From contig JAZRNV010000089.1 in NCBI GenBank assembly GCA_045648425.1, positions 17,691 through 81,690 on the forward strand: a stretch of 64,000 nt of DNA, given 5' to 3'. Positions 33,328 through 55,182 of this stretch are shown piece after piece. The position numbers and the translations under genes are program-made. Positions within the stretch are counted from its first letter, which is position 1. Every line of letters begins with the position of its first letter. Under the pieces are notes generated by a model. It did not search any database. It was not told the origin of the DNA and worked only from the letters and a program-made list of their open reading frames with translations. This DNA is from Acutalibacteraceae bacterium. GTDB taxonomy: Bacteria; Bacillota; Clostridia; Oscillospirales; Acutalibacteraceae.

Positions 33328-33356
33328 ATTATATGCTTTTTGGCGACTTTTGTCAA
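33328..33356 (-). promoter_or_regulatory. consensus sigma-A promoter for the CysK-like gene, overlapping the znuB stop
   Basis: Reverse strand reads TTGACA (33356..33351), an exact 17-nt spacer, then TATAAT (33333..33328). GGAGG RBS lies before the ATG at 33298. Confidence 0.7.
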
Positions 33357-34905: not shown

Positions 34906-34916
34906 TTTTATCCCCC

Positions 34917-35861
34917 TCAGCCAAGCGCTGTTTTTAATGTTTTCAGGTTTGATTGCATTACTGCCAAATAGCTTTTGCCGTCGGATATATCTTTGGCTGA
35001 TACCGACTGCATTGAGTCAAGAGACAGTATCTGTTGATTTTGATGCTTAGTGTTGTAAATGACCGTCTTTGCCAAGGATCGATCACTGCCCTCTATTATA
35101 AGCAGAGTTTTAATATGGTTATCATCTATCCACTTTGAAAGAGAAATTATCTGCTCAAAATCGGCATCGGTCTCGGTTGAGCAGCCGGGAAAGGCCGCCT
35201 GCCATTTGATGCCGTAGTCATTCATAAGATAAACAAAAGGAAAGCGGTCTGCAAAAACCACGCTCTTGATTTTTGCGCTTTCGGTTACGGTACGATAGCT
35301 TTCATCAAGCTCAACGAGCTTGGCAACGTAGCTTTCATAATTTTGGTCATACTGCTGTTGATTTTCTTTATCCACTATCACAAGCAAATTGTGCAAATGC
35401 TCGCACACCTTAACGGCATTTTTAACCGAAAGCCACACATGCTCGTCATATTCACTGTGAGGGTGGTCTTCTCCCTCGTGATGATGATGGTCGTCGGTTA
35501 AAAGGATAAGCCCATCCTTCAAAACATCCATCAATTTTACCTTTTTGCCTGCAAAATCAGAGCTTTTTATGGCTTTATCCATCCATTGGTCGGATGAGCC
35601 GCCGTTATAAACAACAACATCCGCCTTGCTCAAGGACAAAACATCGCTGACGGTGGGCTGGTAGGAGTGCATATCGGTGCCTCGGTCAGCAATTACCGAG
35701 ACCTGTGTATCGGTGTCGGCCACAAGATTTTTAACCCAATCATACTCGGCAAAAGAAGCGCAAACTATATTAAGTCGCTCATCCTCTGTTTTTTGACCGT
35801 TACATCCGCAAAAGGTCAAAGTAACAGCGAGCAAAACTATTAAACTTAAAATTCGTTTCAT
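34917..35861 (-). CDS. znuA: zinc ABC transporter substrate-binding lipoprotein with His-rich loop
   Basis: MKRILSLIVLLAVTLTFCGCNG lipobox. The His/acidic loop DDHHHHEGEDHPHSEYDEH is typical of ZnuA/AdcA. The ATG at 35861 is chosen over the ORF track's 35927, which would overlap zur. Confidence 0.8.
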   Translation of the reverse strand: MKRILSLIVLLAVTLTFCGCNGQKTEDERLNIVCASFAEYDWVKNLVADTDTQVSVIADRGTDMHSYQPTVSDVLSLSKADVVVYNGGSSDQWMDKAIKSSDFAGKKVKLMDVLKDGLILLTDDHHHHEGEDHPHSEYDEHVWLSVKNAVKVCEHLHNLLVIVDKENQQQYDQNYESYVAKLVELDESYRTVTESAKIKSVVFADRFPFVYLMNDYGIKWQAAFPGCSTETDADFEQIISLSKWIDDNHIKTLLIIEGSDRSLAKTVIYNTKHQNQQILSLDSMQSVSAKDISDGKSYLAVMQSNLKTLKTALG

Positions 35862-35871
35862 ATATACTCCG

Positions 35872-36261
35872 TCAGTTACATCCGCCGCAAAGGCCGTACA
35901 ACACCGTGCGTCTGCTGTCAATTTCAAAGTTACTGCTTTGCAAAGCGGCCTTTAAAGCGCCCTCTGCCCTTTTGTTTTGCATATGAAAAATCTTTCCGCA
36001 ACGGGTGCATTGCATATGAATATGGTCACAGCAGGCCTTGGCCGCAACATATTGATAGGTCAGGCGCCCCTCTTCATCGGCTGAGCGGATGAGTCGCCCG
36101 TCTTGCACCATACGGTCAAGGTTTCGATAAACAGCACTTTTTGATATGTCGCCCACCGACTGTAAATCGGTAGCAATCTGCTCAGCGGTCAGATGACGGT
36201 CGCGGTGGGATTCAAAATAGTCGGTAAGCATCTTTCGCTTTGCGGTCACATACTCTTTCAC
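35872..36261 (-). CDS. zur: Fur-family transcriptional regulator, probable Zur
   Basis: 129 aa. Winged-helix N-terminus, HIHMQCTRCG and a C-terminal CGGC. GTG start with an AGAGGTG RBS. First gene of the znu operon. Confidence 0.75.
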   Translation of the reverse strand: MKEYVTAKRKMLTDYFESHRDRHLTAEQIATDLQSVGDISKSAVYRNLDRMVQDGRLIRSADEEGRLTYQYVAAKACCDHIHMQCTRCGKIFHMQNKRAEGALKAALQSSNFEIDSRRTVLYGLCGGCN

Positions 36262-36278
36262 GGAAATTCACCTCTTAC

Positions 36279-36301
36279 AATTTGCGAATGAGTCGCAAAT
36301 T
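36279..36301 (-). promoter_or_regulatory. candidate Zur operator (perfect 9-5-9 inverted repeat)
   Basis: Reverse strand reads AATTTGCGA-CTCAT-TCGCAAATT. It lies immediately downstream of the -10 box, overlapping the expected transcription start. Confidence 0.6.
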
Positions 36302-36330
36302 ATTATAAATCCATTTCTACAATTTGTCAA
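36302..36330 (-). promoter_or_regulatory. consensus sigma-A promoter of zur-znuACB
   Basis: Reverse strand reads TTGACA (36330..36325), a 17-nt spacer, then TATAAT (36307..36302). Confidence 0.7.
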
Positions 36331-36365
36331 CAAAAAATCAGCAGAAGTTTTAACCTCTGCTGATT
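36331..36365 (-). terminator. rho-independent terminator of proCBA
   Basis: AATCAGCAGA pairs with TCTGCTGATT around a 10-nt loop, followed by TTTTTT on the minus strand. Confidence 0.8.
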
Positions 36366-36368
36366 TTC

Positions 36369-37628
36369 TTATCTTATTTGGCCATCGCCTTTTATTATGT
36401 ATTTGTAGGTACACAGCTCACCCAAGCCCATAGGGCCTCTTGCGTGCAGGCGCTGTGTAGATATGCCCATTTCGCATCCAAGCCCAAACTCGCCACCATC
36501 GGTAAAACGCGTAGACACGTTAACATATACCGATGAGCTGTCAACCATTCGGGTAAAGAGCTTGGCGGCATCCTCATTTTGGGTAACAATGGCCTCGCTG
36601 TGGCCGGTAGAGTGGGCGGCTATATGACCTGCCGCATCCTCAACCCCATCAACAACCTTGACGGCAAGAATGTAATCCAAAAACTCGGTGTCAAAGTCGG
36701 TCGCTGAAGCAGGTGTGCCATCAATATACTCGGCGGCTTGACTGTCTAAACGCAATTCGACGGGAGTGAGGCCCTGCGCTGCTCGGTCATCCACCAGCAT
36801 TTTTTGCATAAGGGGTAAAAATTCGGAGGCAATATCCTTGTGAACAAGACAAACCTCAGCCGCATTGCATACTGAGGGACGGCTTGTTTTTGCATTGTTT
36901 ATAATGCTGAGCGCCTTTTGAAGGTCAGCGGCGCGGTCAATATAAACGTGGCAAATGCCTGTTCCCGTTTGAATGCAGGGCACCTTGGCATTTTCGGTGC
37001 AAGCCCTTATGAGCCCTGCCCCACCACGGGGTATAAGCAAATCAACATAGCCCACGGCGGTCATCAAACGGTTGGCGCCCTCCCGAGAGGTATCATCCAG
37101 CAGATTAATAACATCCTCGTGAATGTCTGCGGCCTCAAGGCCCTTTTTAAGCCATTTAACAATGGCGCTGCAGGAGCGGTGAGAATCACTGCCGCAACGC
37201 AGCACGCAAACACTGCCGCTCATTAAAGCAAGGGCGGCGGCGTCTGAGGTAACGTTTGGACGACTTTCATAAATAATAGCAATAACTCCCATAGGTACTG
37301 CTGTTTTTTCGATAATCATTCCGTTGGGGCGTGCTACCTTATCAAGCACCCTGCCAACGGGATCGGGCAAAGCTGCAACCTGGCGAATGCCCTCTGCCAT
37401 TGCTGCAATTCTTTTTTCATCCAGCTTAAGGCGGTCAAGCATTACATCGCTGATTTTGCCCTTGGCGGCCGCCATATCGGCATCGTTTGCCTCGAGAATA
37501 TCAGCGGTGCCTTTTATAAGATGTAAGGCCATCTGCTCAAGGGCCGCCTGCTTTTGCTCGGTTGACAGCAGCGCAGGAATGCTTTTAACTCCTTTGGCCG
37601 CAGACAGTATGCTGTCGGTTGTTCTCAT
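36369..37628 (-). CDS. proA: gamma-glutamyl phosphate reductase
   Basis: 419 aa. Aldehyde-dehydrogenase fold with the catalytic Cys context [12 protein letters not shown]. Confidence 0.9.
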
Positions 37629-37630
37629 AG

Positions 37631-38395
37631 TCAGTTGCCCCCCGTAAAGCGTGTGCCCACCAATTTTCCATCAATAATATCATACAAATCGTCGGGTCTG
37701 GCGCCGTTGGTGATAACCATATCAACGCCTTCGCCGGTAACGATAGAGGCAGCTCGCAGTTTGGTAGTCATTCCACCCGTGCCCATTTTGCCCGAATGAC
37801 CTGCCAAAGAATAAATCTCATCATCAACCTTTTCGACAATAGAAATGAGCTTGGCGTTGGCATCGGTGTGGGGATCAGCGGTATAAAGTCCGTCAATATC
37901 GCTGAGCAACACAAGCAAGTCTGCTTTGGCGCAAACGGTTACAATGGCCGCCAGCGTATCGTTATCACCCACTGCAATTTCTTGAGTAGCAATGGTGTCA
38001 TTCTCGTTAATAATGGGCAAAACACCCAGTTCAAGCAAACGGTAAATTGTGTTTTCAAAATTTTGCTTGCGGTCGCTGTGGTCAAGGTCATCACCCGTTA
38101 GCAAAATCTGTGCCACCACGTGGTTATATTCGGTAAAAAGCTTGTCATAGGTGTACATCAGTTCGCATTGGCCGACTGCCGCAGCTGCTTGCTTTGTAGG
38201 CATATCGGTGGGTCGGTCTTGGATAGGCAGCTTGCCTATACCCATACCGATTGCGCCCGATGAAACCAATATTATTTCGTGACCTGCGTTTTTAAGGTCG
38301 CTGAGCACCTTGCACAGCATTTCAACCTGACGGATGTTTAAGCATCCCGTTGAGTGAGCCAAAGTGGAGGTGCCTACTTTTACTACTACTCTCAT
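37631..38395 (-). CDS. proB: glutamate 5-kinase (short form without PUA domain)
   Basis: 254 aa. [10 protein letters not shown]-terminus and amino-acid-kinase fold. The ORF ends before any PUA domain. Confidence 0.9.
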
Positions 38396-38399
38396 ATTA

Positions 38400-39203
38400 T
38401 CACTTTCCCAATTCTTTCGTTCGGTTATAGGATGCGGTTACTGCATTGCCCACCAACCGGTAAAGCCCTTGATTTTCAAAGACGCGCACGCCTTCAATAG
38501 TACTGCCACCCGGAGAACACACCGCATCTTTCAATTTTTGGGGCTGCTCGCCGCTTTGAATAGCAAGGCGTGCCGCGCCTGCAACGGTATGCTCAGCATA
38601 CATAAGTGCCTTTTCTTTTGGCAAACCGCAGCTCTCTGCAGCCAATGCCAGCGCTTCGATAAACTGATAGACAAAGGCGGGGCCACAACCCGACAAAGCA
38701 CTGCCGGCATCAATCAATTCTTCGGGCAACGGGTCAAGCATACCTGCGCCCTGCATAAGACGGCAAAACTCTATTGTCTGAACTTCGGTAGTTTCCCTTG
38801 TGCAATAAAGTATTACTCCCCCGCCTACCGATGCAGGAGTGTTTGGCATAATGCGTATGGTTGGCACCTTGCCGCCTATATACTTGTGTATGGCGGCAAT
38901 TTCTACACCTGCAGCCATAGAAACAATAACAAATGGGGTTTTTCTTGACAAAAGCACCGGAGCCATTTCAGCCAAAACGGCAGCAATAATCTGTGGCTTG
39001 ACAGCCATAAATATAAACTCGGCCTCGGCCGCGCATTCAAGATTTGTGTAGGTTTTGCCGCCCAAAGCATCTGCCAGGGCTTGTGCTTTTGAAAGGTCGG
39101 CATCGGCAAACATAAGAAGGCAACCGCTTTGTGCCGCTGACTTTGCCAAAGCGCCGCCCATGTTACCGCAGCCGATAAAGGCCACCTTTGTGTTAATGCC
39201 CAT
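38400..39203 (-). CDS. proC: pyrroline-5-carboxylate reductase
   Basis: VAFIGCGNMGGAL Rossmann motif and a C-terminal PGGSTIEG region. The ATG at 39203 is preceded by AAAGGTGG (the ORF track starts at GTG 39215). Confidence 0.9.
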   Translation of the reverse strand: MGINTKVAFIGCGNMGGALAKSAAQSGCLLMFADADLSKAQALADALGGKTYTNLECAAEAEFIFMAVKPQIIAAVLAEMAPVLLSRKTPFVIVSMAAGVEIAAIHKYIGGKVPTIRIMPNTPASVGGGVILYCTRETTEVQTIEFCRLMQGAGMLDPLPEELIDAGSALSGCGPAFVYQFIEALALAAESCGLPKEKALMYAEHTVAGAARLAIQSGEQPQKLKDAVCSPGGSTIEGVRVFENQGLYRLVGNAVTASYNRTKELGK

Positions 39204-39236
39204 AACTCTTGCCACCTTTAAAAATAGTTATAAACT

Positions 39237-39265
39237 ATAATAACACTCTGCTTATATTATGTCAA
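39237..39265 (-). promoter_or_regulatory. sigma-A type promoter of proCBA
   Basis: Reverse strand reads TTGACA (39265..39260), a 17-nt spacer ending in TGT, then TATTAT (39242..39237). The leader is only about 27 nt, so there is no T-box. Confidence 0.6.
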
Positions 39266-39273
39266 GCGAGGGC

Positions 39274-39305
39274 AAAAAAACGACCTGCAGATAAACTGCA
39301 GGTCG
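39274..39305 (-). terminator. rho-independent terminator ending the large glycan-ABC operon
   Basis: CGACCTGCAG pairs with CTGCAGGTCG around a 5-nt loop, followed by TTTTTTT on the minus strand. Confidence 0.85.
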
Positions 39306-39314
39306 TAAAGCTTA

Positions 39315-40259
39315 TTAACCAACGATACCGGTACGCTCAACCGACTGAACAAAATAGCGCTGAAGAATGATATACATAATCAGCATAGGAAGCACAAACA
39401 ACAATGCGCCTGCCATAATCTTTGGTGTCAAGTTGAAGTAGTTGTTACCGGCTCCCAAGTCGCCACGCAGGTTGGACAACGCCTTAGCCAAGGTTCGTTT
39501 GCGTGAAATGAACTGGCTGGTGTAGAAGGTGTCATTCCAATACCACACGATGGAGAAGAGGAAAACAGTCAGGTAGGAACCCGATGCATTGGGAACCATA
39601 ATTCGATAGAAGGTCTTGAAAAATCCTGCGCCGTCAACCATTGCCGCCTCTTCGATTTCAACAGGAATGTTGCGGAAGAACTGGCGGAAAATGTAAACAT
39701 AAAGTCCGCTTCTGAGGCCGGTTGCGGTAAGTGCAGGCAGCCAGAACACAAGCCAGCTGTCTATGAGGTTTACGCTCCAGAACTCGGGCATACTCTTGCC
39801 GGCAAGCATCTCAATCAGAGGTGCAATTATCGGTATAGAGAACTCTTTGTACTGGAAGTACAGAGGAATGGTAATGGTTGCGCTGGGTACGATCAGGGTA
39901 AGCATTACCAATACAAACCACAGTCCGCTTGAACGGAATTTAAAGCGAGCAAATCCATAGCCAACCATTGAGCAAGAGATAAGCTGAAGCACGGTGCTGA
40001 CCAAGCTCATAACCAGAGTGGTTACGAATGCGTCGCCATATCGCATGGTTGTGAACGCTGTTTTAAACTGCTCAATGGTGAAGGCCTTAGGTATCCATAT
40101 AACTGAAGGGTCCATAACCTGGCTGTTAGGACGAACAGCCATAGATATCATATAAAGGATAGGATAAACGAGGATGTAAGAAAGGCCAATCAGCATTACA
40201 AATCTTACAAGCTTCCAAATCAGTGAACCAACTTCGGTAGCAATAATCTTTTTGTTCAT
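39315..40259 (-). CDS. carbohydrate ABC transporter permease (CUT1, MalG-like), pair B
   Basis: 314 aa with 6 TM helices. EAA loop EAAMVDGAGFFKTFYRIMVP. Confidence 0.85.
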   Translation of the reverse strand: MNKKIIATEVGSLIWKLVRFVMLIGLSYILVYPILYMISMAVRPNSQVMDPSVIWIPKAFTIEQFKTAFTTMRYGDAFVTTLVMSLVSTVLQLISCSMVGYGFARFKFRSSGLWFVLVMLTLIVPSATITIPLYFQYKEFSIPIIAPLIEMLAGKSMPEFWSVNLIDSWLVFWLPALTATGLRSGLYVYIFRQFFRNIPVEIEEAAMVDGAGFFKTFYRIMVPNASGSYLTVFLFSIVWYWNDTFYTSQFISRKRTLAKALSNLRGDLGAGNNYFNLTPKIMAGALLFVLPMLIMYIILQRYFVQSVERTGIVG

Positions 40260-40277
40260 TGTAACGTGACTCCTTTC

Positions 40278-41189
40278 TTACTTATTTGTCTGGTAGAACA
40301 CCAATCGGTTACCTACCAAGAACACAATGCCGACAATAACAAGCAGAACAATAAAGAACAACCATGCCATCAAGCTAGCCATTGAATAATTCAAGCTTTG
40401 GAAAGCGATAGAGTTGATATAAGACATAACCTCATTGTCTTTGCCTGTAATCGAGTCGATTATTGTGTAGATAACGTTAACCAAAATGATGGGTGATACG
40501 TTGGGGAATGTAACCTTCCAGAAAATTTCCCAACCGGTTGCACCCTCAATCTTGGCAGCTTCATAAAGCTGGGGTGATACGCCCTGCAACGCTGCAAGGA
40601 AGAGCAGTATTTGTACACCACATTTCCACAGCGTATCAAATATCTGGTTAACAATGGTGATGAAGCCCTCAATAAAGCTTTCGGGCAAATTCATTCCCTC
40701 AAGAATTTCGACCATACCTGCCGCCTGGAAAACGGTAGATGATGATTCACTTTCCATATTGCCGTAGAAGGTGTCACCCTTAATGATAGAGATAACAACA
40801 CCGGAGGTAACAACAACTGGCATAAAGAAGACTGCTCGAGCTATCAAACGGCCGCGGAACTCCTGATTAAGGATGATGGCCAAAAACAGCGAGAAAATTA
40901 CAACCACAGGTACGGTGTAAAGCATGCTGAGCAAGGTGTTACCAAGTTTTACCCAGAAGTCTGATTCGGCGCCAAACATATGCTCATAGTTGTCGAATCC
41001 TACAGGTTCAAGACTTATACCGCCGCCCTTTGCCGGCTGCATATTCTGAAAGGTATAATACAAAGATGTTGCAAGGGGTTGCAGATAGAAGCAACAGAAA
41101 CCGATTATGAAGGGAAGAACAAAGGCGAAACCGGCTCTGGCTCTGCGCTGTTGTTCGGTAAGAATTTTCTTACTTTTCTTAGCACCCAT
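40278..41189 (-). CDS. carbohydrate ABC transporter permease (CUT1, MalF/UgpA-like), pair B
   Basis: 303 aa. EAA loop EAAKIEGATGWEIFWKVTFP. Its ATG shares base 41189 with the upstream stop. Confidence 0.85.
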   Translation of the reverse strand: MGAKKSKKILTEQQRRARAGFAFVLPFIIGFCCFYLQPLATSLYYTFQNMQPAKGGGISLEPVGFDNYEHMFGAESDFWVKLGNTLLSMLYTVPVVVIFSLFLAIILNQEFRGRLIARAVFFMPVVVTSGVVISIIKGDTFYGNMESESSSTVFQAAGMVEILEGMNLPESFIEGFITIVNQIFDTLWKCGVQILLFLAALQGVSPQLYEAAKIEGATGWEIFWKVTFPNVSPIILVNVIYTIIDSITGKDNEVMSYINSIAFQSLNYSMASLMAWLFFIVLLVIVGIVFLVGNRLVFYQTNK

Positions 41190-43546
41190 TATTCAACCCC
41201 TCCTTCCGTAGTCTGCGATTGCACTGATGTTTTTTCAGCATATTCGGATGCAGTCATAACAAGATATCCGCCTGCTGAAACTGTTGCATCACCCAATGCG
41301 TAATCCTTGTCACCGTAGTTAACAAGCACTACTCTTTCGCCACCGTAAACGGTTGCACGAACATCAGTGGTGATTATGTCGTGATCGGTTATCTGCTTAT
41401 CGCAGTAGCCGTTAAGAACGCCTGCCAAAACCTTATAGTCTTTGGCGGCTACGTCTGCCCAAGTCTTGTACTGGCTGGTGTAGATCAAATTGTGACGGGT
41501 GTTAAGGAACACTGCACTTTCTGAATCGGTCAGTACATAGTAGGGTGCGGCACCGGTCTCAAGCTGACGGAGCAGCTGAATCTTGGTGTCGAAGGTAAGG
41601 TTATGAGCGGTCTCGGTATAGGTTATAAGACCGTGCAATGCCAACTGTGCAAAAGGTACATCGGTAAAGGTCATCTCATATCCGTTGCAATACATGGGCA
41701 AGCCTGCAACAACATCTGCGCTGACATAGCTGAATGCATTACCAACGTTAACCATCACCTTGCCGTCTTTGCCGAGGTTAGTCTTGATATTGGCAAGAGC
41801 ATCTCCCATCAAATCACTGGTCTGCTGAGCATCAGTGAAGCTGTCGTGAGAGTTGTTAAAGTCAGAATAGTTGTTTTCTGCAAGCGAACCGGCAGAAATG
41901 CCCTTAATAGCTTTAAGCTCATCATAATCAGCAAAGAATTTATCTACCTGAGTTTTGAAAAGCGAGGGCTTGCACAAATAATAGGTGTATGTGCTGGGCA
42001 TACCGGTGCTGCGCAGATAAATGGCCTGCTCAGAATGGTTATTAAGAATGTTGCGGATTGAGAATTTATTGGGCTTGCCCTTATACATCTTAACTACCTC
42101 AAGCTCGAGGTAGGTAGTGCCGCCCTGACTCTCAATATATTTATTGAGCTCTAACAGGTCATCCTTCTTGCCGAGCAAGGGTTCGTGCTTGGCATTGGAA
42201 ACTAAGCCGCCGTCAGCGCCGCCCTTTGTCCAACCGATATAACGCAGGTTGATGTTTTTAATATCTTTCTTATTAAGATATTCAACCATCGCTTTTGCCT
42301 GGCTGAAGGTGGTAGAGGTTTTTGTAACATCGGTTACAAAGCCCATAACCGATTCGGTCTTTTTGAAGGCACCCATTGTTTCAAGATAGAAGGGCAAATC
42401 TTCAGAAACCTCTGAGCCAACGCCCTGCTCAATAAGGTACTCGCGGTATGTCTGAGCCATTCCTACGTAATCGGCTTTTTCGCCATGGGTTGAGTAGAAA
42501 CGAACAGTTGCATTATCCAGATCGGTATGCTCAAGAGTTACCTGATCATAGTCCTTAATATTCCAGGCGTTTTTGGTGGTGAACACGTCGGTCTTGTTGT
42601 AAATAAACTCAACGTAAGCAGTGGTAAAGGGGAAGCTCTCACGGGCGCTTACCGCTTTAATCATTGCGCTTGCTTCACCGCGCTCGATTACACCCAGCCA
42701 TGCTCTGTCCCCTGCTTTAGTTCCTACCACAGGAAGAACGGTGCTCTCACTGCGTCCAAGCTTAAGGGTGGTGTTGAGCGCACTGTCACGGCCGTATACA
42801 TAGGCGCTGTAATACTTAACGCCGCCATCAAGTGCCGTAAAGCTGTTATCCATCAAAGCGCCGCTGCCGTCGGGAATAAGAACATAGCCATCTTCACCGT
42901 AAAGAGCACAACCGTAATAAGGCATAACAGAGATGCTGAGTATGCTGCTTTCGCTGTTTTTGTCAACCTTGATTTTGTTCATCTCAACGCTGACGTCAAA
43001 GTGGTTGTCCTTAAGGGTGTAGGTTAAGGGAAGAGTAAATCCTTTGCCTTCTTTGGCACCGGGGAACTCATAGGTAATACGAACACCGTTGTCGATTTTG
43101 TCGACCTTATAATTGCCTTCAACAACAGCAGTGGCAGAAAGACACTTTTGTGCTACCTTGCTCTTGTCTTGATAATTGATAATTGCCGACGACATAATTT
43201 CGGTGCGAAGCATTTCGTTTTCAATTGAAGTTGCCTTTGCAGGCACAGAATAGGTTACAGTGCCGGATTCAACATCCTTGACTGCAAAAACGATGTGCTT
43301 CTTTGCTTTTTCAAGCATATAAAGCTCGGTAGTTTTGTTGCCGGCTATCTTTTTGAATTCGTCGAGTCCCTCGTAAAGAGGCGCTACATCTGTCTTTATT
43401 GCACCGTCGCTGTCGCTGCCGATTGTTCCGGTATCAACAGGGGGAGTTTCTTCGTTGTCGGCAAAAACCGCAACGGAGCCCGATGCAATTACCATTGCAA
43501 GGATGGACAGTGCTGTAACGAACAAAAGTAATAATTTCTTTTTCAT
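41189..43546 (-). CDS. 785-aa secreted protein of unknown function (I recall DUF5696-type proteins in this context; unverified)
   Basis: Signal peptide MKKKLLLLFVTALSILAMVIASGSVAVFA. No motif I can assign. Segments such as GYVLIPDGSGALMD and NINLRYIGWTKGG hint at a glycan-processing fold. Confidence 0.4.
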   Translation of the reverse strand: MKKKLLLLFVTALSILAMVIASGSVAVFADNEETPPVDTGTIGSDSDGAIKTDVAPLYEGLDEFKKIAGNKTTELYMLEKAKKHIVFAVKDVESGTVTYSVPAKATSIENEMLRTEIMSSAIINYQDKSKVAQKCLSATAVVEGNYKVDKIDNGVRITYEFPGAKEGKGFTLPLTYTLKDNHFDVSVEMNKIKVDKNSESSILSISVMPYYGCALYGEDGYVLIPDGSGALMDNSFTALDGGVKYYSAYVYGRDSALNTTLKLGRSESTVLPVVGTKAGDRAWLGVIERGEASAMIKAVSARESFPFTTAYVEFIYNKTDVFTTKNAWNIKDYDQVTLEHTDLDNATVRFYSTHGEKADYVGMAQTYREYLIEQGVGSEVSEDLPFYLETMGAFKKTESVMGFVTDVTKTSTTFSQAKAMVEYLNKKDIKNINLRYIGWTKGGADGGLVSNAKHEPLLGKKDDLLELNKYIESQGGTTYLELEVVKMYKGKPNKFSIRNILNNHSEQAIYLRSTGMPSTYTYYLCKPSLFKTQVDKFFADYDELKAIKGISAGSLAENNYSDFNNSHDSFTDAQQTSDLMGDALANIKTNLGKDGKVMVNVGNAFSYVSADVVAGLPMYCNGYEMTFTDVPFAQLALHGLITYTETAHNLTFDTKIQLLRQLETGAAPYYVLTDSESAVFLNTRHNLIYTSQYKTWADVAAKDYKVLAGVLNGYCDKQITDHDIITTDVRATVYGGERVVLVNYGDKDYALGDATVSAGGYLVMTASEYAEKTSVQSQTTEGGVE

Positions 43547-43564
43547 TTTACATCACTCCATCCT

Positions 43565-44272
43565 TTAATAAGTAAATCTAAACACGAGTTCTTGATAAAT
43601 TGTAGTTGCAAAGTTGTAAATTTCCAAGAACAAGCTAAACATAAGAATCATCAAAAGCAACAGAACCAACACACCGAAAATGGTAAGAATCATTGAGAAA
43701 ATGCTCTTTCCGAAGGAGTACTGGTGCACTGTGGTGTTGGCTATAAATAGCAACAGCACCATCCAACCGAACACGATGGTTTCGGCGATGCCAATAAAGG
43801 CGCCTTCTTCGATTGTTGTTACCTTTGAGATAATTGCCAAGGGCACAATGGTCATTATCTGGGGCATAACTGAATAGCAGCTGCAAATCCAGATTTCTTT
43901 GAACCAACCCTCACCATCCATAAGGGTGCATATAGCCCAGTTGGATATGCTCCACAAAACGATGATGGCACCTGTGCTCATAAACAGGTTGAAAAGCTTA
44001 AGGTCTTCAACTCGGTTTTCGTTAAACTGGAAGCCGGTTTCCAAAAATGAAAACACTGCACTGAATGTCCACAGAATAAGAATGATAACCGACAGCAAAA
44101 CCGAGCCGCGCTTTTCATACTTGATTTCTGTGAAGGCCTGAACAGGATGGGTAAGCACTCTGAAAGGCCATATAATTTTTTGCCAATCCCAATTTTTGGG
44201 GTTCAGCTTTTGGGGGCTGAACTTGAAAGAAGCTTTTTTGGAATATTTGATTATATTTGCAATAGATCCCAT
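43565..44272 (-). CDS. Yip1-domain-like polytopic membrane protein
   Basis: 235 aa. A cytoplasmic N-terminus is followed by 5 hydrophobic helices. Strong RBS AAGGAGGGG. Confidence 0.55.
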   Translation of the reverse strand: MGSIANIIKYSKKASFKFSPQKLNPKNWDWQKIIWPFRVLTHPVQAFTEIKYEKRGSVLLSVIILILWTFSAVFSFLETGFQFNENRVEDLKLFNLFMSTGAIIVLWSISNWAICTLMDGEGWFKEIWICSCYSVMPQIMTIVPLAIISKVTTIEEGAFIGIAETIVFGWMVLLLFIANTTVHQYSFGKSIFSMILTIFGVLVLLLLMILMFSLFLEIYNFATTIYQELVFRFTY

Positions 44273-44286
44273 TATTCAACCCCTCC

Positions 44287-45930
44287 TTAACTAAATTTAA
44301 TGCGTTTTTTCTTGCGCTTAATGCCAAGACACTTCTGAATAAATCTGAAGATAAGCACAAAGACTACGCAAGCCACTACTACGGTAGGAACAAGCCACAT
44401 ATAGTTTTTACGCAAATATTCTTTGCGGTACTCTTGCAATGCAAGTGAATATGAGGTTCTGTCTTGACCTTGCTTGAGCCAGTAAAGTGACTCTTCATAC
44501 TTCTTTTGCTCGCGAAGAGATTTACCGATTGCTGCATATCCACGAGCAAAGTTTGCATCATACTTAAGAACGTTGCGCCAATATGGCTCGCCTTTCACAT
44601 AAAGTCCGTCGGTATAGAACTTGTTTGCCTCAAGCAACATGGACATATATTCGGTGGGACGGTATGTAACAATAGTACCGCGAGCTGCGTCCAGAACAAG
44701 ATAGCGGTCATTCAAGCGATCAATGGCGGTTGCAGAAGCAATGGTGCCTTCCGACGAGTTACCTGTTGCTTTAAAACCGAATGCGGTAAGGAGCATGCAG
44801 GATTGGTCGTAAAGGTAAATTCTGCTTCTTTCAACGTCCATACAAGCGATGATTCCGTTTTCATCTACCACAACGTCTTCAAGTCGTGTATCGGAAGTCA
44901 CGCGGTTACCGCCTGTAACATAGGAGCCGGCTTCTCGGTCACCAAAAACAACATCTACCAAAGCATTAACATCGGCGTTAAGGGTGTTGGTGCCGGATGC
45001 GTTAAGTTTTCTGACGCGAAGCTCTTTTTCAACGGTAGAGGTAGCTGTGGTTGTGTAGATAAAGCCCTCTTCATCTATATACATATTAGACATTTCGGTA
45101 GGAACTGCCTTTATACGGCCTTCGGTTGCTTTACGTGAGAAAATCTTTTTAATGGTTTGCTCAATAAGCAATCTCCAGGTAAGAACAACCTTGTTTGCAC
45201 CGTAGAAGGTGTCAAACTGTGCGCTGTCGTACTTGTAAACAATGATACCGTCCAGCACACCGTATGCCTGCAGGTAAAGGTAGTTGGAATCGTCAACTAC
45301 TACGCTGAGGGGCTGGAAGTCTTTGATGTTGGTTACAGAGCTTTCGGGACGAACATACTTACGAATAATATTGCCGTCCATATCAGCGCAAATGACATAT
45401 CCGTCTTTGCGCTCAGCTCCGTCTTTATCCTTTACGGTGATGTTGCAGCAAACGAACATCTCATCCTTGTCGGTGTCTTTGTTGTGACGAACAAACAGAC
45501 CCTGAGGTGAAGGGATAGGTTGCTTGGTGCCATCCTCTGCAGTGAAGGTGGTGTACTCGCGCAAGAACTTGTACTCAGTATCAAGCACGATAATTCGTCC
45601 ATATTCGGTGCTGTCAGAAGCATCCTTTTCGCCTTCGGCATCTAAGGTCTCAATATTTACACCTGAACTGTCGGTTATCCAAATTTCTTTGTTGTCAAAC
45701 ACGAACATATCTTGAGGAGTAGACAGGTTTTCAGCCAAGCCCATATCCTCATAATCTATTGTTCCGGCGGGCAAATAGCCAACGGGAGCAGCGGTGCTGA
45801 CTCCGTATGGGTCATAGTTGTATCCCTCATAAGGAGGTGATGACAATGCCGATACCGGAAGAACCATAACTGTTGCCATAATGGCAAGAACCATTATCAC
45901 GGCAACTGCATTAGCTGCAATTCTTCTCAT
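44287..45930 (-). CDS. extracytoplasmic beta-propeller-like (NHL/YVTN-type) protein with TPR-like segment and C-terminal TM anchor
   Basis: 547 aa. N-terminal signal/TM segment (AVAVIMVLAIMATVMVLPVSALS) and a repetitive beta-rich middle. The C-terminal YAAIGKSLREQKKYEESLYWLKQG is TPR-like. This is followed by TM LVPTVVVACVVFVLIF and a KRKKKR tail. Confidence 0.45.
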   Translation of the reverse strand: MRRIAANAVAVIMVLAIMATVMVLPVSALSSPPYEGYNYDPYGVSTAAPVGYLPAGTIDYEDMGLAENLSTPQDMFVFDNKEIWITDSSGVNIETLDAEGEKDASDSTEYGRIIVLDTEYKFLREYTTFTAEDGTKQPIPSPQGLFVRHNKDTDKDEMFVCCNITVKDKDGAERKDGYVICADMDGNIIRKYVRPESSVTNIKDFQPLSVVVDDSNYLYLQAYGVLDGIIVYKYDSAQFDTFYGANKVVLTWRLLIEQTIKKIFSRKATEGRIKAVPTEMSNMYIDEEGFIYTTTATSTVEKELRVRKLNASGTNTLNADVNALVDVVFGDREAGSYVTGGNRVTSDTRLEDVVVDENGIIACMDVERSRIYLYDQSCMLLTAFGFKATGNSSEGTIASATAIDRLNDRYLVLDAARGTIVTYRPTEYMSMLLEANKFYTDGLYVKGEPYWRNVLKYDANFARGYAAIGKSLREQKKYEESLYWLKQGQDRTSYSLALQEYRKEYLRKNYMWLVPTVVVACVVFVLIFRFIQKCLGIKRKKKRIKFS

Positions 45931-45984
45931 TATTATCCTCCGTTCAAACCGCCTTGGCGGTGTTAGTTTTTTTGTTGATGTATA

Positions 45985-46899
45985 TTACTTCAGACCCGAT
46001 GTTGACATCGTCTCCATAATTGAGCTTTGGCTGAAGATAAACAATCCTATCGGAGGAAGCATCATAACCAATGCAACGGCTGCGGCAGCACCCTGACGGG
46101 CAACACCGCCGGCGGTAATTTGGCTGAGAGCAGTGGGCAGCATCTTCATCGGCTCGTCATAAATATATACCGAACCGGTTGCGTGCCACATGCTTTGGAA
46201 GGAGAATATTGCCAAGGTCAACCATGCAGGTTTTACGTTTGGCATTGCTATCTTCCAGAAAATGTACCACTCGCCTGCACCGTCAATTCGAGCAGCTTCA
46301 AGAACAGCGTCGGGAATGTTTGATTCCATAAACTGTCTCATAAGGAAAACGCCCATTGTGCCTGCAAGTGAAGGCAACAGCAATGACCAGTAGGTGTTGA
46401 TCATATTCAGATTGGCTATAATCAAATATTGCTGGATGCCCAAAACCTCGGCACGGAACATCATAGCCCAAACTACGATATTATAAAGGAAGGATTTGCC
46501 TTTAAAGCGGTGCTTTGCAAGGGGGAATGCTGTCAATGCGCCAATCAAAATGCCAAGCACTGTACCGCCAACAGCAATAAGCACGCTGTTAAAGAGATAT
46601 CGTGAGAAGGGCACCTGTGATGACGAAATGAGTCGCATCATGGTTGAAAAGTTGTCAAACGTGGGGTTAACAACATAAAAACGAGGGGGGAAGATGAACA
46701 ATTCGTTCAATGGCTTAAATGCACTGATTGCCGCATAGTAAAGGGGCAATACCATGAATGCACCAAAGAGGAAAAGGAAGAGGAACATAAAGAAGTTACC
46801 TGCACGAGAGCGGTTAACCTTTTTCTTGTTGCCGCCCTTTTGACGCAAGAACTTTTTGCTGTAGGTTGCGTCCGGGTTAAGTTGTTTGTTTTTTCTCAC
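45985..46899 (-). CDS. carbohydrate ABC transporter permease (MalG-like), pair A
   Basis: 304 aa. EAA loop EAARIDGAGEWYIFWKIAMP. GTG start preceded by AAGGAGGA. Confidence 0.85.
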   Translation of the reverse strand: MRKNKQLNPDATYSKKFLRQKGGNKKKVNRSRAGNFFMFLFLFLFGAFMVLPLYYAAISAFKPLNELFIFPPRFYVVNPTFDNFSTMMRLISSSQVPFSRYLFNSVLIAVGGTVLGILIGALTAFPLAKHRFKGKSFLYNIVVWAMMFRAEVLGIQQYLIIANLNMINTYWSLLLPSLAGTMGVFLMRQFMESNIPDAVLEAARIDGAGEWYIFWKIAMPNVKPAWLTLAIFSFQSMWHATGSVYIYDEPMKMLPTALSQITAGGVARQGAAAAVALVMMLPPIGLFIFSQSSIMETMSTSGLK

Positions 46900-46917
46900 A
46901 GTCTTTTCCTCCTTTCT

Positions 46918-47817
46918 TTAATCTTGACTCCAGCGAGACAATACCTTGTTGACCAACCACCAGTAGATAAGCATCATTGCAAACAGAACGATTGATACTG
47001 CACTTGCGTAGCCCATTTCAAAACGTACAAAAGCGTAGTCGTCCATATGCAAAACAATGGTGTGGGTTGAGTAGTCGGTTGAGGGGTTGCCGGTCAAAGC
47101 TGCGTTAACAGCACCGCAAGCGAAAGAGCTTGAAATGGTGAACACCGCACCCAAAAGCAACTGGGGCTTCATCTGGGGAAGGGTTACATAGAAAAGCTCT
47201 TGCCAACGGTTTCTGATACCGTCAATGGCACCCGCCTCGGCAAGCTCGGTATTAAGACCTTGCAAGCCGGCTATAAAGGTAAGGAAGCTGGTACCTGCAC
47301 TCATCCACAAAATAACCACGATAACAATGGTCATTGTGTAGTTGGTGTCGGTCAAAAATTGTATCGGACTGTCTATAAATCCGTTATCGATAAGCACTGA
47401 GTTAACCAAGCCGTAGGAGTCACCGCTGAATATGTACTGCCAAATGAAGTAAACGTTACCGGCAAGGGTAGGTGCGTAAAAGCAAAGGGTAAGGAATGAA
47501 CGCAATCCCCTGCCAAGCTCGTTGATACACCAAGCAAATACGAAGCTGAGCAAATAACCGACAGGGCCGGTAATAACTGCAATTATCAATGTGTTCTTGA
47601 GTGATGTCATAAATACGTCATCATCAAGGAAAAGGCGAACGTAGTTTTCAAACCAGTTGATTTTAGGCATATTAAGCATATCAAAGCTGGTAAAGCTGAG
47701 CAAAATAGCCGCAACAACGGGGATGAACATAAAGGTTACGAAGAGAATAAGCCAGGGAGCCATCATTTGATAGCTAACGAAGGAGGACTGGCCTAATCTT
47801 ACTTTTTTCTTTCTCAT
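46918..47817 (-). CDS. carbohydrate ABC transporter permease (MalF-like), pair A
   Basis: 299 aa. EAA loop EAGAIDGIRNRWQELFYVTLP. ATGA overlap with the upstream giant SBP gene. Confidence 0.85.
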   Translation of the reverse strand: MRKKKVRLGQSSFVSYQMMAPWLILFVTFMFIPVVAAILLSFTSFDMLNMPKINWFENYVRLFLDDDVFMTSLKNTLIIAVITGPVGYLLSFVFAWCINELGRGLRSFLTLCFYAPTLAGNVYFIWQYIFSGDSYGLVNSVLIDNGFIDSPIQFLTDTNYTMTIVIVVILWMSAGTSFLTFIAGLQGLNTELAEAGAIDGIRNRWQELFYVTLPQMKPQLLLGAVFTISSSFACGAVNAALTGNPSTDYSTHTIVLHMDDYAFVRFEMGYASAVSIVLFAMMLIYWWLVNKVLSRWSQD

Positions 47818-50789
47818 TTATGACCCTCCTTCTTGGCTTGCTTTTGAATTTCTTCTACATTGTATTCTACACGCTTACGCTGAATCTCTTTATCCATTTC
47901 GGTGCTGTAACGAAGCATTGCCTCACGGGGATTCTCATTCTTGTAAACAACAGCGCGGTATGCGTTGTTAATCATACGTGTAATATAGTAGTCACCGGGA
48001 ATCTTTGCATAGTCGGTTACATCTTCCCAAGCGCTTTGAATAACCTTTTGCTCTTCTGTTGACCATGAAAGGCGAGCAAATGCCTTTTGGTTAGCAGTAG
48101 TGTAGCGACCACCGATACCCAAACGAGCTTCGATCTTGTTGCCAAAGACTGCCTGAGCATCTGCAGATACCCACCAAGCCATAAACTGATAAACCTGCTC
48201 TTTGTTGTCGCAGCCCTTGATCATTACACTTACAAGGCCTTCGCAGGGCTGTGCACGATTGATGGTGCCGTCCTCACCGGGAATGCCGGGGATGGGATGC
48301 ATCTCCCACAAGCCCTTGATTTCGGGAGCACCAACTGCAAGGTTATTATAGAAGGTATAGTTGGTTACAATGATGGGATACTCGCCTGAGCGGAAACGGT
48401 TAAGAGCATCGTATGACAAAGGCATACTGTATTTGGTGTTAAACTCGGTCCACTGACGGAATGCATCAATGGCTTCAACGGTATTGAAGTTAACTGCAGA
48501 ATAGTCATCTACGAAATATGTACCGCCACGCTGGAAGAGCATAGTTGAGAACATATCTGCGGTAGTAGGAATACCAACGTTCATATTCTGACGCTGAATA
48601 ACGGTTATACAATTGTAAAGGTCTTGCCAGGTCTGGGGTGCTTCAAGGCCTAAGCTGTCAAGCACGTCGGTACGAACAAACATCATGTTAAAGGTTTGTG
48701 TTTCGGGCAAACCGTAGGTTTTACCGTCCTGATACTTAAGTGCAATGAAGGACGAGTCGAAGAACTGCTCCTTAAGCTTATCGAAGGAGTATTCACCGTA
48801 TTTTTCACCGGTAAACTGTTCCATATCCTCCAATGCGCCACGCATTGAATAGTTAACAGGGGTTGCGCTGCCAACCATGATTGCACAGTCAGGGCCGGTG
48901 CCTGCAAGGATTGCCTTGGTAAGTGAACCGCCAACGTCAACCAAGCTAAGGTTTACGGGGATTTTGGTTTCCTTAACAAACTGGTCGTCAATCATAGTCT
49001 TTAAGATGTTCATCTGGTCACGGCCGGATGACATCCAAACCTCGATAGGTTCACAGACATAACCTTCTGTGTTGTCTTCACTATATACATTGCCGAATGC
49101 ATTATAGTCGGTTACAAATGATGCAAAGAAGCTCTTGACTGAGAAAGCAAAAGAAACACCAGGGCCAACGTTGGGCTTGGGAAGCTCTTTCTCGCCGCCA
49201 ACATAGATGCGGTCAAGAATGATCGACTGCTCACTCATTGAACGAAGCATATCTGAAATTGAAGAAATGTTTGACTTGTATGCGCCGAGAGCAGAGGTAA
49301 TCTTAACGGGGTCTTCATCGAACTTGTCAAGCTGCTTGACCATAATGTCGATAAAGGCAGTAACACCGCCGTCAATATTGCCGTTATACTTTGCTACACC
49401 GTCATTGATGTCTACAAGACTGTTGCGAACGGCCTTGAAGCGCTTCATAAGGTTGGGGATGGCCTTGTCGATATCATAGTCGCGGTTAGCATCGGGAGAG
49501 GTGCCGGTAATCTTGATGATTTCAAGATAGATGGCATTCATCTCGGTGATGGTTTCGTTAAGCAACTGAAGGGAGTCGGAAACAGGGCCAAGGGTGTTGG
49601 TGAGGGTGATGGTGTTATCGCCCTTCTCCAAATAAATATAATAAGGAGTACCGTCCTTCTGAGAGGCAGTATAGTTATCCCACTTGGTGTTTGAGTTGAA
49701 GGGTACGCAATCAAACTCCTCATAGGGTATCTCACCGTTAACAGAAATGCTGCGGTATACCTTAAAGCCGCGAACATAATCTTGACGGTATTTAAATGAA
49801 AGGGAGTAAAGACCTGACTTAGGAACGTTTACATTCCAGCTGATCCACTGACCGGTTGAATCCCAAAGCTCACCGCCGATAGTGTTAAGGCGAGTCTGTG
49901 AGGGATGAGAAGGATAGGTGGAAGCAGATGAATAGTCAGAAGCCATGGTCAAGCTCTGCTCTGAACGCTCGTATGAGTTTTCAGCTTCAAGAATGATGGG
50001 AGCTCCCTTATAGATCTCGTAGCCCTTGTCCTTATACTGGCTGAGCACTTCCTTGTAAGAGTCATAGCTAACAGGTGCAACAAGCTCAAGCTTGCTAAAT
50101 GCAATCTGCTCGCGCTGAACTTCAAAACGGATGGTATGGGTGCCCTTGGTAAGGCAAACCTCGAGATCATCGTCGGTCATATAGTCATTGTCGTGAAGGA
50201 TGTAATCCTGCCAGCTCTCAATAACGATGGCGTCAGGGGCAAGCTCATTACCTATAGCATCTGCCTCATGGCCGTACTCATTGAGCTTATCACCCTTCTC
50301 CGGCTTTTTGTCGCGCCATACGCGAGAAAGAGACACGGTTGTTGCCTCGGTATAGGGAACCACACCGTCAACGTAGAGTCTGAACTCACCGTCGATAGTG
50401 CGCTCACCCGGCAGGCAATAACGGGTGTTGATTACATAAATCGCATCTTCATCAACAGTAACGGTATATTCTACATACTCGCCCTTGTCGATTACGATGC
50501 CTTGCTCACCCTTAATGTCTTTAATCTCTACACCCTCACCCTTTGCAGAAGGATTAAGAGCATCGATAATGACACTTTGAGTGGCATCCTTTACCTTTGC
50601 AGTCTCTGCTTTAAAATCTTTAAAAGAAAGACCGCTGGAACTGAGAGCCGATATCGAGTTGTTGTCGGCATCGGTCATGTCTTCCGTCTGGGTTGAATCT
50701 GCTGGTGCTGCCAATGCTGTTAAGGTAGGCACTGCAGCCAACAGCATTATCATCGCCAGAAGCAACGCAAACACACGTTTGTTAAACAT
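47814..50789 (-). CDS. 991-aa extracellular solute-binding protein with about 500-aa N-terminal extension (probable carbohydrate-binding beta-sandwich modules)
   Basis: Signal peptide MFNKRVFALLLAMIMLLAAVPTLTALA. Two similar segments (…GEFRLYVDGVVPY… and …FKVYRSISVNGEIPY…) are followed by a family-1 SBP-like C-terminal half. First gene of the operon with two permease pairs. Confidence 0.65.
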   Translation of the reverse strand: MFNKRVFALLLAMIMLLAAVPTLTALAAPADSTQTEDMTDADNNSISALSSSGLSFKDFKAETAKVKDATQSVIIDALNPSAKGEGVEIKDIKGEQGIVIDKGEYVEYTVTVDEDAIYVINTRYCLPGERTIDGEFRLYVDGVVPYTEATTVSLSRVWRDKKPEKGDKLNEYGHEADAIGNELAPDAIVIESWQDYILHDNDYMTDDDLEVCLTKGTHTIRFEVQREQIAFSKLELVAPVSYDSYKEVLSQYKDKGYEIYKGAPIILEAENSYERSEQSLTMASDYSSASTYPSHPSQTRLNTIGGELWDSTGQWISWNVNVPKSGLYSLSFKYRQDYVRGFKVYRSISVNGEIPYEEFDCVPFNSNTKWDNYTASQKDGTPYYIYLEKGDNTITLTNTLGPVSDSLQLLNETITEMNAIYLEIIKITGTSPDANRDYDIDKAIPNLMKRFKAVRNSLVDINDGVAKYNGNIDGGVTAFIDIMVKQLDKFDEDPVKITSALGAYKSNISSISDMLRSMSEQSIILDRIYVGGEKELPKPNVGPGVSFAFSVKSFFASFVTDYNAFGNVYSEDNTEGYVCEPIEVWMSSGRDQMNILKTMIDDQFVKETKIPVNLSLVDVGGSLTKAILAGTGPDCAIMVGSATPVNYSMRGALEDMEQFTGEKYGEYSFDKLKEQFFDSSFIALKYQDGKTYGLPETQTFNMMFVRTDVLDSLGLEAPQTWQDLYNCITVIQRQNMNVGIPTTADMFSTMLFQRGGTYFVDDYSAVNFNTVEAIDAFRQWTEFNTKYSMPLSYDALNRFRSGEYPIIVTNYTFYNNLAVGAPEIKGLWEMHPIPGIPGEDGTINRAQPCEGLVSVMIKGCDNKEQVYQFMAWWVSADAQAVFGNKIEARLGIGGRYTTANQKAFARLSWSTEEQKVIQSAWEDVTDYAKIPGDYYITRMINNAYRAVVYKNENPREAMLRYSTEMDKEIQRKRVEYNVEEIQKQAKKEGHK

Positions 50790-52414: not shown

Positions 52415-52444
52415 TCTGAAAACCTCCTTGTGTTTTTTCTATGA

Positions 52445-55180: not shown

Positions 55181-55182
55181 TA

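Follow-up and report, generated by a model that had tools for sequence, protein, structure and literature searches.

Three adjacent genes, referred to here as the trio, lie between two complete pairs of permease genes in a 64,000-nucleotide (nt) stretch of DNA from an Acutalibacteraceae bacterium (contig JAZRNV010000089.1 of assembly GCA_045648425.1); this whole stretch is what we call the window. In the order of transcription, the trio encodes a protein with an NHL-type propeller and TPR-like helices (the NHL-TPR protein), a membrane protein of the Yip1 family and a secreted protein of the Pfam family DUF5696. An initial annotation, made from the letters of the window and its open reading frames (ORFs), had described the three as an uncharacterized group inserted into an operon for an ATP-binding cassette (ABC) transporter. 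From comparisons of sequence and gene order, we conclude that the trio is no chance insertion; it forms an invariant accessory core in a cassette that is widespread among Firmicutes and apparently serves glycan uptake. The full cassette consists, in order, of one or more small substrate-binding proteins (SBPs), a giant SBP with modules resembling carbohydrate-binding modules (CBMs), permease pair A, the NHL-TPR, Yip1 and DUF5696 proteins and permease pair B, with no ATPase gene in cis (Table 1).

The ORFs of the trio and of both permease pairs are all on the minus strand, and the initial annotation had placed every one of them exactly. Its range of 14 to 54 nt for the gaps, its strong ribosome-binding sites and its shared base at the last junction are borne out as well: the gaps separating A2 from the NHL-TPR gene, the NHL-TPR gene from the Yip1 gene and the Yip1 gene from the DUF5696 gene are 54, 14 and 18 nt, respectively, a GGAGG-type ribosome-binding site stands ahead of each gene, and the DUF5696 stop codon and the B1 start codon have a single base in common, the last A of the stop being the A of the ATG. 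Farther upstream, the stop codon of the giant SBP gene overlaps the A1 start codon by 4 nt. The four exact protein sequences of the trio and the giant SBP are those of called genes in a public NCBI assembly. A terminator scan found no good terminator inside 39315..50789. Given this, the strong terminator upstream of the small SBP genes and the intrinsic terminator that begins 9 nt past the B2 stop codon, a single transcription unit most likely runs from ~56.7 kb to 39.3 kb. The 227-nt gap ahead of the giant SBP gene contains a perfect 12-bp stem with 7 GC pairs, lacking a clean T run; rather than being a full terminator, this stem-loop may be an mRNA-processing or stability element that sets the ratio of SBP to permease expression. 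The terminator scan and the overlapping junctions thus agree with the earlier claim that the trio is cotranscribed and translationally coupled with the permeases.

Table 1. Features of the cassette region in the window, in the order of transcription
Feature	Position	Strand	Description
Upstream strong terminator	56905..56877		Upstream of the four small SBP genes
Small SBP array	51017..56625	-	Four tandem paralogous lipoprotein SBPs, ~440-480 aa
Stem-loop	50967..50994	-	In the 227-nt gap separating the small SBP array from the giant SBP gene
Giant SBP	47814..50789	-	991 aa, secreted
Permease A1	46918..47817	-	MalF-like CUT1, BPD_transp_1, EAA loop at residue 194
Permease A2	45985..46899	-	MalG-like CUT1, BPD_transp_1, EAA loop at residue 201
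NHL-TPR protein	44287..45930	-	547 aa, proposed extracytoplasmic scaffold
Yip1 protein	43565..44272	-	235 aa, five transmembrane segments, proposed membrane half of the NHL-TPR-Yip1 unit
DUF5696 protein	41189..43546	-	785 aa, GH129/GH101-like fold (model)
Permease B1	40278..41189	-	MalF-like, BPD_transp_1, EAA loop at residue 210
Permease B2	39315..40259	-	MalG-like, BPD_transp_1, EAA loop at residue 204; last gene of the operon
Operon-end intrinsic terminator	39280..39306	-	11-bp stem, 7 GC pairs, then TTTTTTT

Conservation and variation of the cassette

Using the motif [FLV][VIL]PDGSGA[LIV][IM], we searched a single genome for each GTDB species and found at least 579 loci encoding a relative in these species-representative genomes. 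ORFs were called at the loci and searched with hidden Markov models (HMMs) built from the window proteins, and the synteny statistics that follow come from the best-scoring 80 loci of each scan together with a few look-ups of distant members. The best 80 loci all belong to Bacillota (Acutalibacteraceae, Oscillospiraceae, Ruminococcaceae, Lachnospiraceae, Christensenellales, Mahella, Paenibacillus, Cohnella and Gracilibacillus), the nearest being those of Acutalibacteraceae metagenome-assembled genomes (MAGs) at 72% identity, and the hosts are saccharolytic Firmicutes of gut, digester and soil. The NHL and Yip1 genes lie directly upstream of the DUF5696 gene in all 70 loci with enough flanking sequence, two permease genes lie downstream of it in 63 of 64, and a 940- to 1,060-aa SBP and two permeases (pair A) are encoded upstream of the trio in 56 of 62. 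Reciprocally, starting from the giant SBP on metagenome contigs with at least 7 kb of downstream sequence, we recovered the trio followed by pair B, ordered as in the window, in 39 of 39 cases. The same cassette surrounds DUF5696 members at only 22 to 24% identity and is present in the Paenibacillus and Oscillospiraceae examples as well. The arrangement recurs in ~120 independent loci, far beyond chance, and the statement of the initial annotation that such trios recur in sugar-ABC loci of Firmicutes therefore holds, with conservation next to CUT1 permeases in other genomes down to 22% identity. The protein family itself is large: a DUF5696 profile run against 1.84 billion representatives matched 7,685 clusters (50% identity) at an E value of ≤1e-3 and 4,274 at ≤1e-30. 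The region shows uniform GC content and keeps its synteny down to 22% identity, and we therefore rejected a recent insertion or mobile element as an account of the locus.

The details of the arrangement are conserved along with its order. In most loci, the DUF5696 stop codon overlaps the B1 start codon by 4 or 1 nt, which suggests stoichiometric coproduction of the two proteins, and in 34 of 70 loci the NHL-TPR and Yip1 proteins form one polypeptide of ~700 aa; this fusion in distant homologues provides a Rosetta-stone link between the two proteins. When each permease was assigned by its best cross-locus match, position was recovered for A1 in 67/67 cases, for A2 in 67/67, for B1 in 80/80 and for B2 in 79/80 (293 of 294 in total); on this criterion, each of the four positions represents an ancient orthogroup of its own. 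The mean identity across 99 distant loci was 51% for A1, 49% for A2, 38% for B1 and B2, 34% for the giant SBP, 32.5% for Yip1 and 27% for the NHL and DUF5696 proteins.

Six loci carry half-cassettes, in which a small SBP, a Laminin_G_3 protein, a fused NHL-Yip1 protein, a longer DUF5696 protein, B1 and B2 are encoded and the giant SBP and pair A are missing. The persistence of the trio in these loci argues that it belongs with pair B, and the joint absence of the giant SBP and pair A, together with the overlap of the giant SBP stop codon and the A1 start codon, argues that the giant SBP belongs with pair A. Because the small SBP is the only SBP of the half-cassettes, it is likely that the small SBPs are the cognate binding proteins of pair B. 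The earlier description of the trio as lying between two permease pairs is therefore correct for the window, but the trio is not a simple insertion there, being tied to pair B. In the half-cassettes of loci L019 and L043, the DUF5696 proteins are ~150 aa longer at the N terminus, and the Laminin_G_3 (concanavalin-like lectin) protein, of ~434 aa, is encoded between the small SBP and the fused NHL-Yip1 protein (5333..6634 in L019 and 5389..6693 in L043); this variant may stand in functionally for the CBM modules that the giant SBP carries.

Other loci depart from the standard layout by additional genes. Thirteen have 2.6 to 3.9 kb of extra genes between B1 and B2; in L003 (13434..15924), these consist of two ORFs (326 and 481 aa) that lack any significant Pfam match. 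In L087, a GH5 gene (cellulase family) that also encodes an F5/8 type C (F5_F8) domain (14509..16497) lies inside the cassette, between A2 and the fused NHL-Yip1 gene. The carbohydrate-active enzymes (CAZymes) encoded in the flanks are diverse and include GH18, DUF4838, GH10, PL1, GH95, GH38 and GH16 proteins. Several genomes have two or more cassettes, among them MAGs with two loci each (L009 and L043, L017 and L048, L019 and L034, L054 and L077). Cassettes appear to lie in tandem in L142, where a fused NHL-Yip1 gene at 3168 lies upstream of the giant SBP gene, and in L151, which has a second DUF5696 gene at 11848. The tandem and multicopy cassettes suggest paralogous expansion like that of polysaccharide utilization loci (PULs).

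Proteins of the cassette

The initial annotation could assign no motif to the third protein of the trio. We found that Pfam DUF5696 (PF18952) matches it with an E value of 1.3e-139 (467 bits, against a cutoff of 25.6) and over the full length of the model, residues 146-761 corresponding to HMM positions 2-612 of 612. An AlphaFold model (pLDDT 89.3, pTM 0.89) has a signal or anchor helix, an N-terminal β-sandwich, a (β/α)8 barrel and a C-terminal β-sandwich, which is the three-domain fold, with a GH13-like catalytic barrel, of the CAZy glycoside hydrolase (GH) families GH129 and GH101. A Foldseek search with this model returned the GH129-like enzyme DagB (5opq) first, with an E value of 4e-31, followed by NagBb (5wzn; 4e-25) and then by GH101, GH36, GH31 and GH13 structures (top entries 5opq, 8rzk, 5wzn, 2zxq and 5a55); the target TM scores were 0.69 to 0.73 for the GH129-like structures, at 12% identity.

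The relationship is also detectable, in part, between sequences. A profile of 65 DUF5696 members matched GH129 sequences with E values of 1e-11 and 2e-10. The matches cover the N-domain together with the first half of the barrel and stop before its catalytic half, where no sequence similarity was detectable. GH129 gene fragments carry precomputed PF18952 matches. A phmmer search of the window protein against the PDB gave nothing, and none of 47 DUF5696 members matched the Pfam GH101 or GHL models at an E value of ≤1, the only matches being to DUF5696 itself and two weak ones to GH97. The DUF5696 protein thus falls outside GH129 and GH101 at the sequence level: it is, as far as such comparisons reach, a remote homologue of these families and a member of them by no sequence threshold. 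The outcome that the initial annotation had said would undo its proposal, namely, that this protein would turn out to belong to a known GH, polysaccharide lyase or carbohydrate esterase family with a straightforward role, leaving the other two genes dispensable, is therefore not what we found. One member of the DUF5696 family carries a CBM_4_9 domain. Going by the modeled fold, the DUF5696 protein is probably a glycan-processing subunit.

Among 381 non-identical DUF5696 members, the most conserved polar residues follow directly on barrel strands or belong to the N-domain element from which DagB draws its essential Asp202. In the N-domain, they are D226 of the PDGSGA motif, on a hairpin (94%), and Y251 and D254 of the YGxD motif (99% and 89%); in the barrel, they are D562, in the loop after strand 4 (86%), N603 (82%), N649 (97%) and E663 (89%).

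For the NHL-TPR protein, the AlphaFold model (pLDDT 86.3) shows an N-terminal signal or anchor helix, a six-bladed propeller at residues ~35-425, TPR-like helices at 427-508, a transmembrane segment at 510-534 and a basic tail, and hydropathy gives two transmembrane segments. The best Foldseek matches are the NHL domains of TRIM71, TRIM2 and Brat (E of ~1e-12, TM score of 0.70), which, together with the six blades, identifies an NHL-repeat propeller in the predicted structure. The window protein itself has no Pfam match at an E value of ≤0.01, TPR included; its homologues carry Pfam NHL (PF01436), and the fused homologues match TPR_2, TPR_11 and TPR_16, whereas the window protein shows only the modeled paired helices. 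We considered the propeller as a lyase or lactonase and found this unsupported, since nonenzymatic NHL domains are its best matches and those to enzymes have E values of 1e-7 or weaker. Residues ~248-280 carry a conserved consensus, ANKVVLT..WKKIFSREA..VPTE, and, at a pLDDT of <60, are modeled as a separate helix that is not part of the propeller; they may be a partner-docking element.

Pfam Yip1 (PF04893) matches residues 37-207 of the second trio protein with an E value of 4e-13 (50 bits, against a cutoff of 28.6), and the protein has five hydrophobic segments, as a member of the Yip1 family should. For both the propeller protein, with its TPR-like segment and C-terminal membrane anchor, and the Yip1-like protein with five transmembrane segments, the initial annotation had read the architecture correctly. 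The predicted topology fits the fusion seen in other loci, with the propeller outside, the transmembrane segment crossing inward and both the basic tail and the Yip1 N terminus inside. The Yip1 protein of the window belongs to a cluster of 25 sequences at ≥90% identity, and the DUF5696 proteins encoded on the same contigs as these sequences are only 70 to 77% identical to that of the window, which implies that the membrane component is under much stronger constraint than its extracellular partners.

The transport proteins are those of a CUT1 ABC importer (TC 3.A.1.1), with an SBP_bac_1 binding protein and MalF- and MalG-like BPD_transp_1 permeases, all four of which have EAA loops in the window. 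The giant SBP begins with a signal or anchor and has an SBP_bac_1 domain (residues 591-880, E = 1.8e-22) toward its C terminus; between the two lie a pair of CBM35/CBM6-like β-sandwich modules, for which the Pfam match to CBM_35 is weak, and a helical region. All of 22 giant-SBP homologues contain SBP_bac_1, and matches to CBM_35, CBM_6 and Golvesin_C also occur among them. Hydropathy gives the giant SBP one N-terminal hydrophobic segment, and it has no lipobox; a lipobox is missing from 55 of 61 of its homologues and is almost never present in the giant SBP, the DUF5696 protein or the NHL protein. All four small SBPs of the window do have lipoboxes in their translations (AVGC, ATGC, LAGC and ATGC), and at least 54 of 84 loci have lipoprotein SBPs of normal size encoded beside the cassette. 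SBP_bac_1 matches three of the four small SBPs; the fourth (55183..56625) is clearly paralogous yet has no Pfam match even at an E value of ≤0.1. The listed starts of 52445..53878, 53882..55213 and 55183..56625 are probably too far upstream, as the signal peptides begin at an internal Met.

An ABC ATPase gene was found inside the cassette in none of 164 loci scanned, and none encoding a protein of MsmK size was found within 10 kb. Such ATPase-free loci are typical of Firmicute CUT1 systems that share MsmK or MsmX, and we expect the ATPase to be supplied in trans by a shared MsmK-type protein. In the window, the only nearby ABC ATPase is that of a zinc transporter, encoded just past the cassette terminator (32369..39215, minus strand) in a group made up of proC, proB, a proA-like gene and then a ZnuABC-type zinc importer and a PALP (pyridoxal phosphate-dependent) gene; the pro genes have a near-consensus promoter of their own at 39265..39237, and no MsmK-type ATPase or regulator adjoins the cassette on this side of the window. 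On the other side, 56918..63569 (minus strand) encodes three tandem proteins of ~700 aa with BNR/Asp-box and Sortilin-Vps10 matches and no signal peptide. We rejected these as canonical GH74 xyloglucanases, an identity that would have pointed to the substrate of the cassette, because no solved homologue was found at an E value of ≤1e-5 except over a short Ycf48 stretch.

A proposed glycan-processing module and its alternatives

We propose, at a probability of about 0.5, that the trio is an extracytoplasmic glycan-processing and docking module on a CUT1 ABC importer, in which the DUF5696 protein is held beside pair B. The NHL-TPR and Yip1 proteins would form one membrane-embedded scaffold, which would keep the DUF5696 protein, itself secreted and without a lipobox, on the cell surface beside the dimer of B-type permeases. 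There, this divergent relative of the retaining GH129/GH101 glycosidases would bind, and probably trim, a captured oligo- or polysaccharide, whose products would reach pair B via the small SBPs. Pair A would receive its substrates from the giant SBP, which bears two CBM-like modules, and both pairs would be energized in trans by a shared MsmK-type ATPase. The initial annotation had offered both surface capture or processing of glycans and gating of the transporter; the former gains support because the DUF5696 protein has a GH129/GH101-like fold and because the NHL-TPR and Yip1 proteins occur as fusions, and, on such evidence, a processing role appears better supported than a gating role.

Several observations weigh against this proposal. 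hhalign aligns the DUF5696 family to one GH129 fragment up to residue 526 and places Y510 on NagBb Trp398, a stacking platform (PMC8106489); beyond this anchor, we mapped the catalytic residues by counting and by matching helix and strand lengths, a procedure distinct from superposition. On this mapping, the NagBb nucleophile D435 (DagB D486) falls on G553/S554, position 554 being Asp in 27% of the 381 members, and the acid/base E478 falls on N600, where 44% of the family have Asp or Glu. D562, the best-conserved barrel acid and the one nearest to the nucleophile position, is conserved in only 86%. Judged from these alignments, the canonical GH129 catalytic pair is not conserved in the family, and the window protein is without both residues. 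Furthermore, the best Foldseek matches of the NHL propeller are not enzyme-like and point to no identified ligand, and pair A and the giant SBP are highly conserved despite the variable CAZymes around them, which is a poor fit to a purely substrate-specific importer.

The missing catalytic pair is an argument for the idea that the DUF5696 protein is a noncatalytic pseudoglycosidase, one that kept a GH129-like glycan cleft and lost hydrolysis and that the NHL-TPR-Yip1 unit would hold as a receptor, adaptor or gate passing long glycans to the SBPs or to pair B. This we regard as rather unlikely, even though the most invariant residues of the family are Gly, Pro, Tyr and Ala and the PDGSGA element of the N-domain, not barrel carboxylates, though a protein translationally coupled to a permease is more likely to be a stoichiometric subunit than a freely secreted enzyme, and though bona fide GHs are encoded beside cassettes and, in one locus, inside. 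Against it stand the conservation of D226, D254, D562 and E663 at 86 to 94% and the circumstance that, to our knowledge, there is no case of a GH-fold protein replacing an SBP. In addition, noncanonical catalysis is nothing unusual in this fold group: DagB, a GH129-like enzyme with activity, retains the Asp that corresponds to NagBb D435 but not the acid/base E478, and an essential residue, Asp202, comes from an N-domain helix of the second monomer (PMC5698469). Loss of the canonical pair is not decisive, because active DagB also departs from the NagBb positions. An HMM alignment puts the invariant Y251 of DUF5696 on DagB Y205, so that D254 of the YGxD motif falls within the N-domain element that also contains DagB Asp202. 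A noncanonical active site in DUF5696 is therefore plausible on the alignments, and we lean modestly toward its existence.

If the cassette were an ordinary Gram-positive polysaccharide utilization operon, no complex would be needed: DUF5696 would be a new family of secreted glycosidases, the NHL-TPR-Yip1 unit would be an independent membrane protein (for example, a sensor or chaperone), the two ABC importers would work independently, and cotranscription would reflect coregulation only. All of the components are of types common in glycan loci, the flanking CAZymes vary as they do in PULs, and several genomes have multiple cassettes. Coregulation alone, however, rarely keeps an exact gene order, overlapping junctions and four permease orthogroups between Bacilli and Clostridia, at 27 to 50% identity, in ~120 loci with essentially no exceptions, and the lack of anchors (no lipobox) on the DUF5696 protein and the giant SBP argues for their retention by partners. 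We think this account distinctly improbable. Still further from our expectation, and very improbable in our judgment, is a role outside nutrient uptake, in which the cassette would recycle or sense a conserved polymer, self-made or environmental (a cell-envelope or biofilm polysaccharide), with the giant SBP and pair A recognizing one common ligand. Pair A (~50%) and the giant SBP (34%) are indeed more conserved than would be expected of substrate-diversified importers, their neighbors differ, and the housekeeping genes proCBA and znuABC follow downstream in the window; but the neighbors are overwhelmingly CAZymes for plant or host glycans (GH10, PL1, GH95, GH38, GH16, GH18, GH5 and esterases), the hosts are saccharolytic, and the cassettes are multicopy within genomes, as PULs are.

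The proposal of a docked processing module could also be taken further. In an enzyme-coupled ABC importer, the NHL-TPR-Yip1 unit and the DUF5696 protein would be stoichiometric extracytoplasmic subunits of the B dimer, and the docked GH129-like subunit would cleave or thread the captured glycan and hand its product straight to the translocation pathway. We put this forward as speculation that is unlikely to hold in full.

Significance and comparison with known systems

The statement in the initial annotation that no function has been assigned to such trios agrees with the literature, in which we found no paper mentioning DUF5696, PF18952 or the combination of NHL, Yip1, DUF5696 and CUT1 genes; a combined search for Yip1, NHL, SBP and GH gave only unrelated papers. 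Firmicutes are major degraders of dietary fiber and plant biomass, and the way in which Gram-positive bacteria couple surface capture and cleavage of glycans to ABC import is far less understood than are Sus-like systems in Bacteroidota. The cassette, being large, rigidly conserved, multicopy and widespread, is a strong candidate for such coupling of processing to import. If the transporter-docked module is real, it would be a new ABC importer architecture, would probably include a new glycoside hydrolase family related to GH129 and GH101 and would provide a simple genomic marker for predicting where Firmicutes of gut and soil encode glycan utilization. On a more conservative view, that of a new GH family with a scaffold, thousands of proteins annotated as "DUF" or "YIP1 family" would still gain a role.

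The closest relatives of the DUF5696 protein by structure are the GH129, GH129-like and GH101 enzymes (the α-N-acetylgalactosaminidase NagBb, 5WZN; the 3,6-anhydro-D-galactosidase DagB, or ZGAL_3152, 5OPQ; and the endo-α-N-acetylgalactosaminidases), with which it has the three-domain layout in common (PMC5698469). It differs from GH129 in the invariant motifs PDGSGA (225-230) and YGxD (251-254), found only in DUF5696, and from both families in being always encoded with an NHL-Yip1 unit and a permease pair.

There is also a precedent for a Yip1-family protein at an ABC transporter. YknW of Bacillus is an accessory or assembly factor of the transporter YknWXYZ (PMC4887032) and is, like the cassette protein, a polytopic Yip1-family protein encoded with a Firmicute ABC transporter, a link that consists of the shared Pfam domain only. 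YknYZ, however, is a MacB-type exporter with a membrane fusion protein, whereas the partners in the cassette are BPD_transp_1 permeases of a type I importer, and the cassette adds to its Yip1 protein, by fusion or through a neighboring gene, TPR repeats and an extracellular NHL propeller. The combination that defines YknWXYZ-type systems, Yip1 with a MacB-type permease, an ATPase and a membrane fusion protein, does not occur in the cassette.

The likeness to the SusCD utilisomes of Bacteroidota is one of functional analogy only: a conserved transporter core, variable CAZymes, multiple copies per genome and a CBM-bearing SBP and a GH-fold protein beside the transporter. The two systems are unrelated in their proteins, their membrane and their energy source, and assembly of the Firmicute proteins is only proposed. 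If the enzyme-coupled importer proved true, it would be the Gram-positive counterpart of the Bacteroidota utilisome, and the eight-gene cassette would be a hallmark in the manner of susC and susD.

The cassette most resembles the CUT1 (MalEFGK/MsmEFGK-type) importers of Gram-positive PULs, with which it shares SBP_bac_1 binding proteins, MalF- and MalG-like permeases, the lack of an ATPase gene at the locus and CAZyme neighbors. It stands apart from ordinary members of that group in that it keeps two complete, anciently diverged permease pairs in a fixed order within one operon, in that its own SBP is ~1,000 aa long, with two CBM-like modules and no lipobox, and in that three obligatory extra genes lie between its permease pairs.

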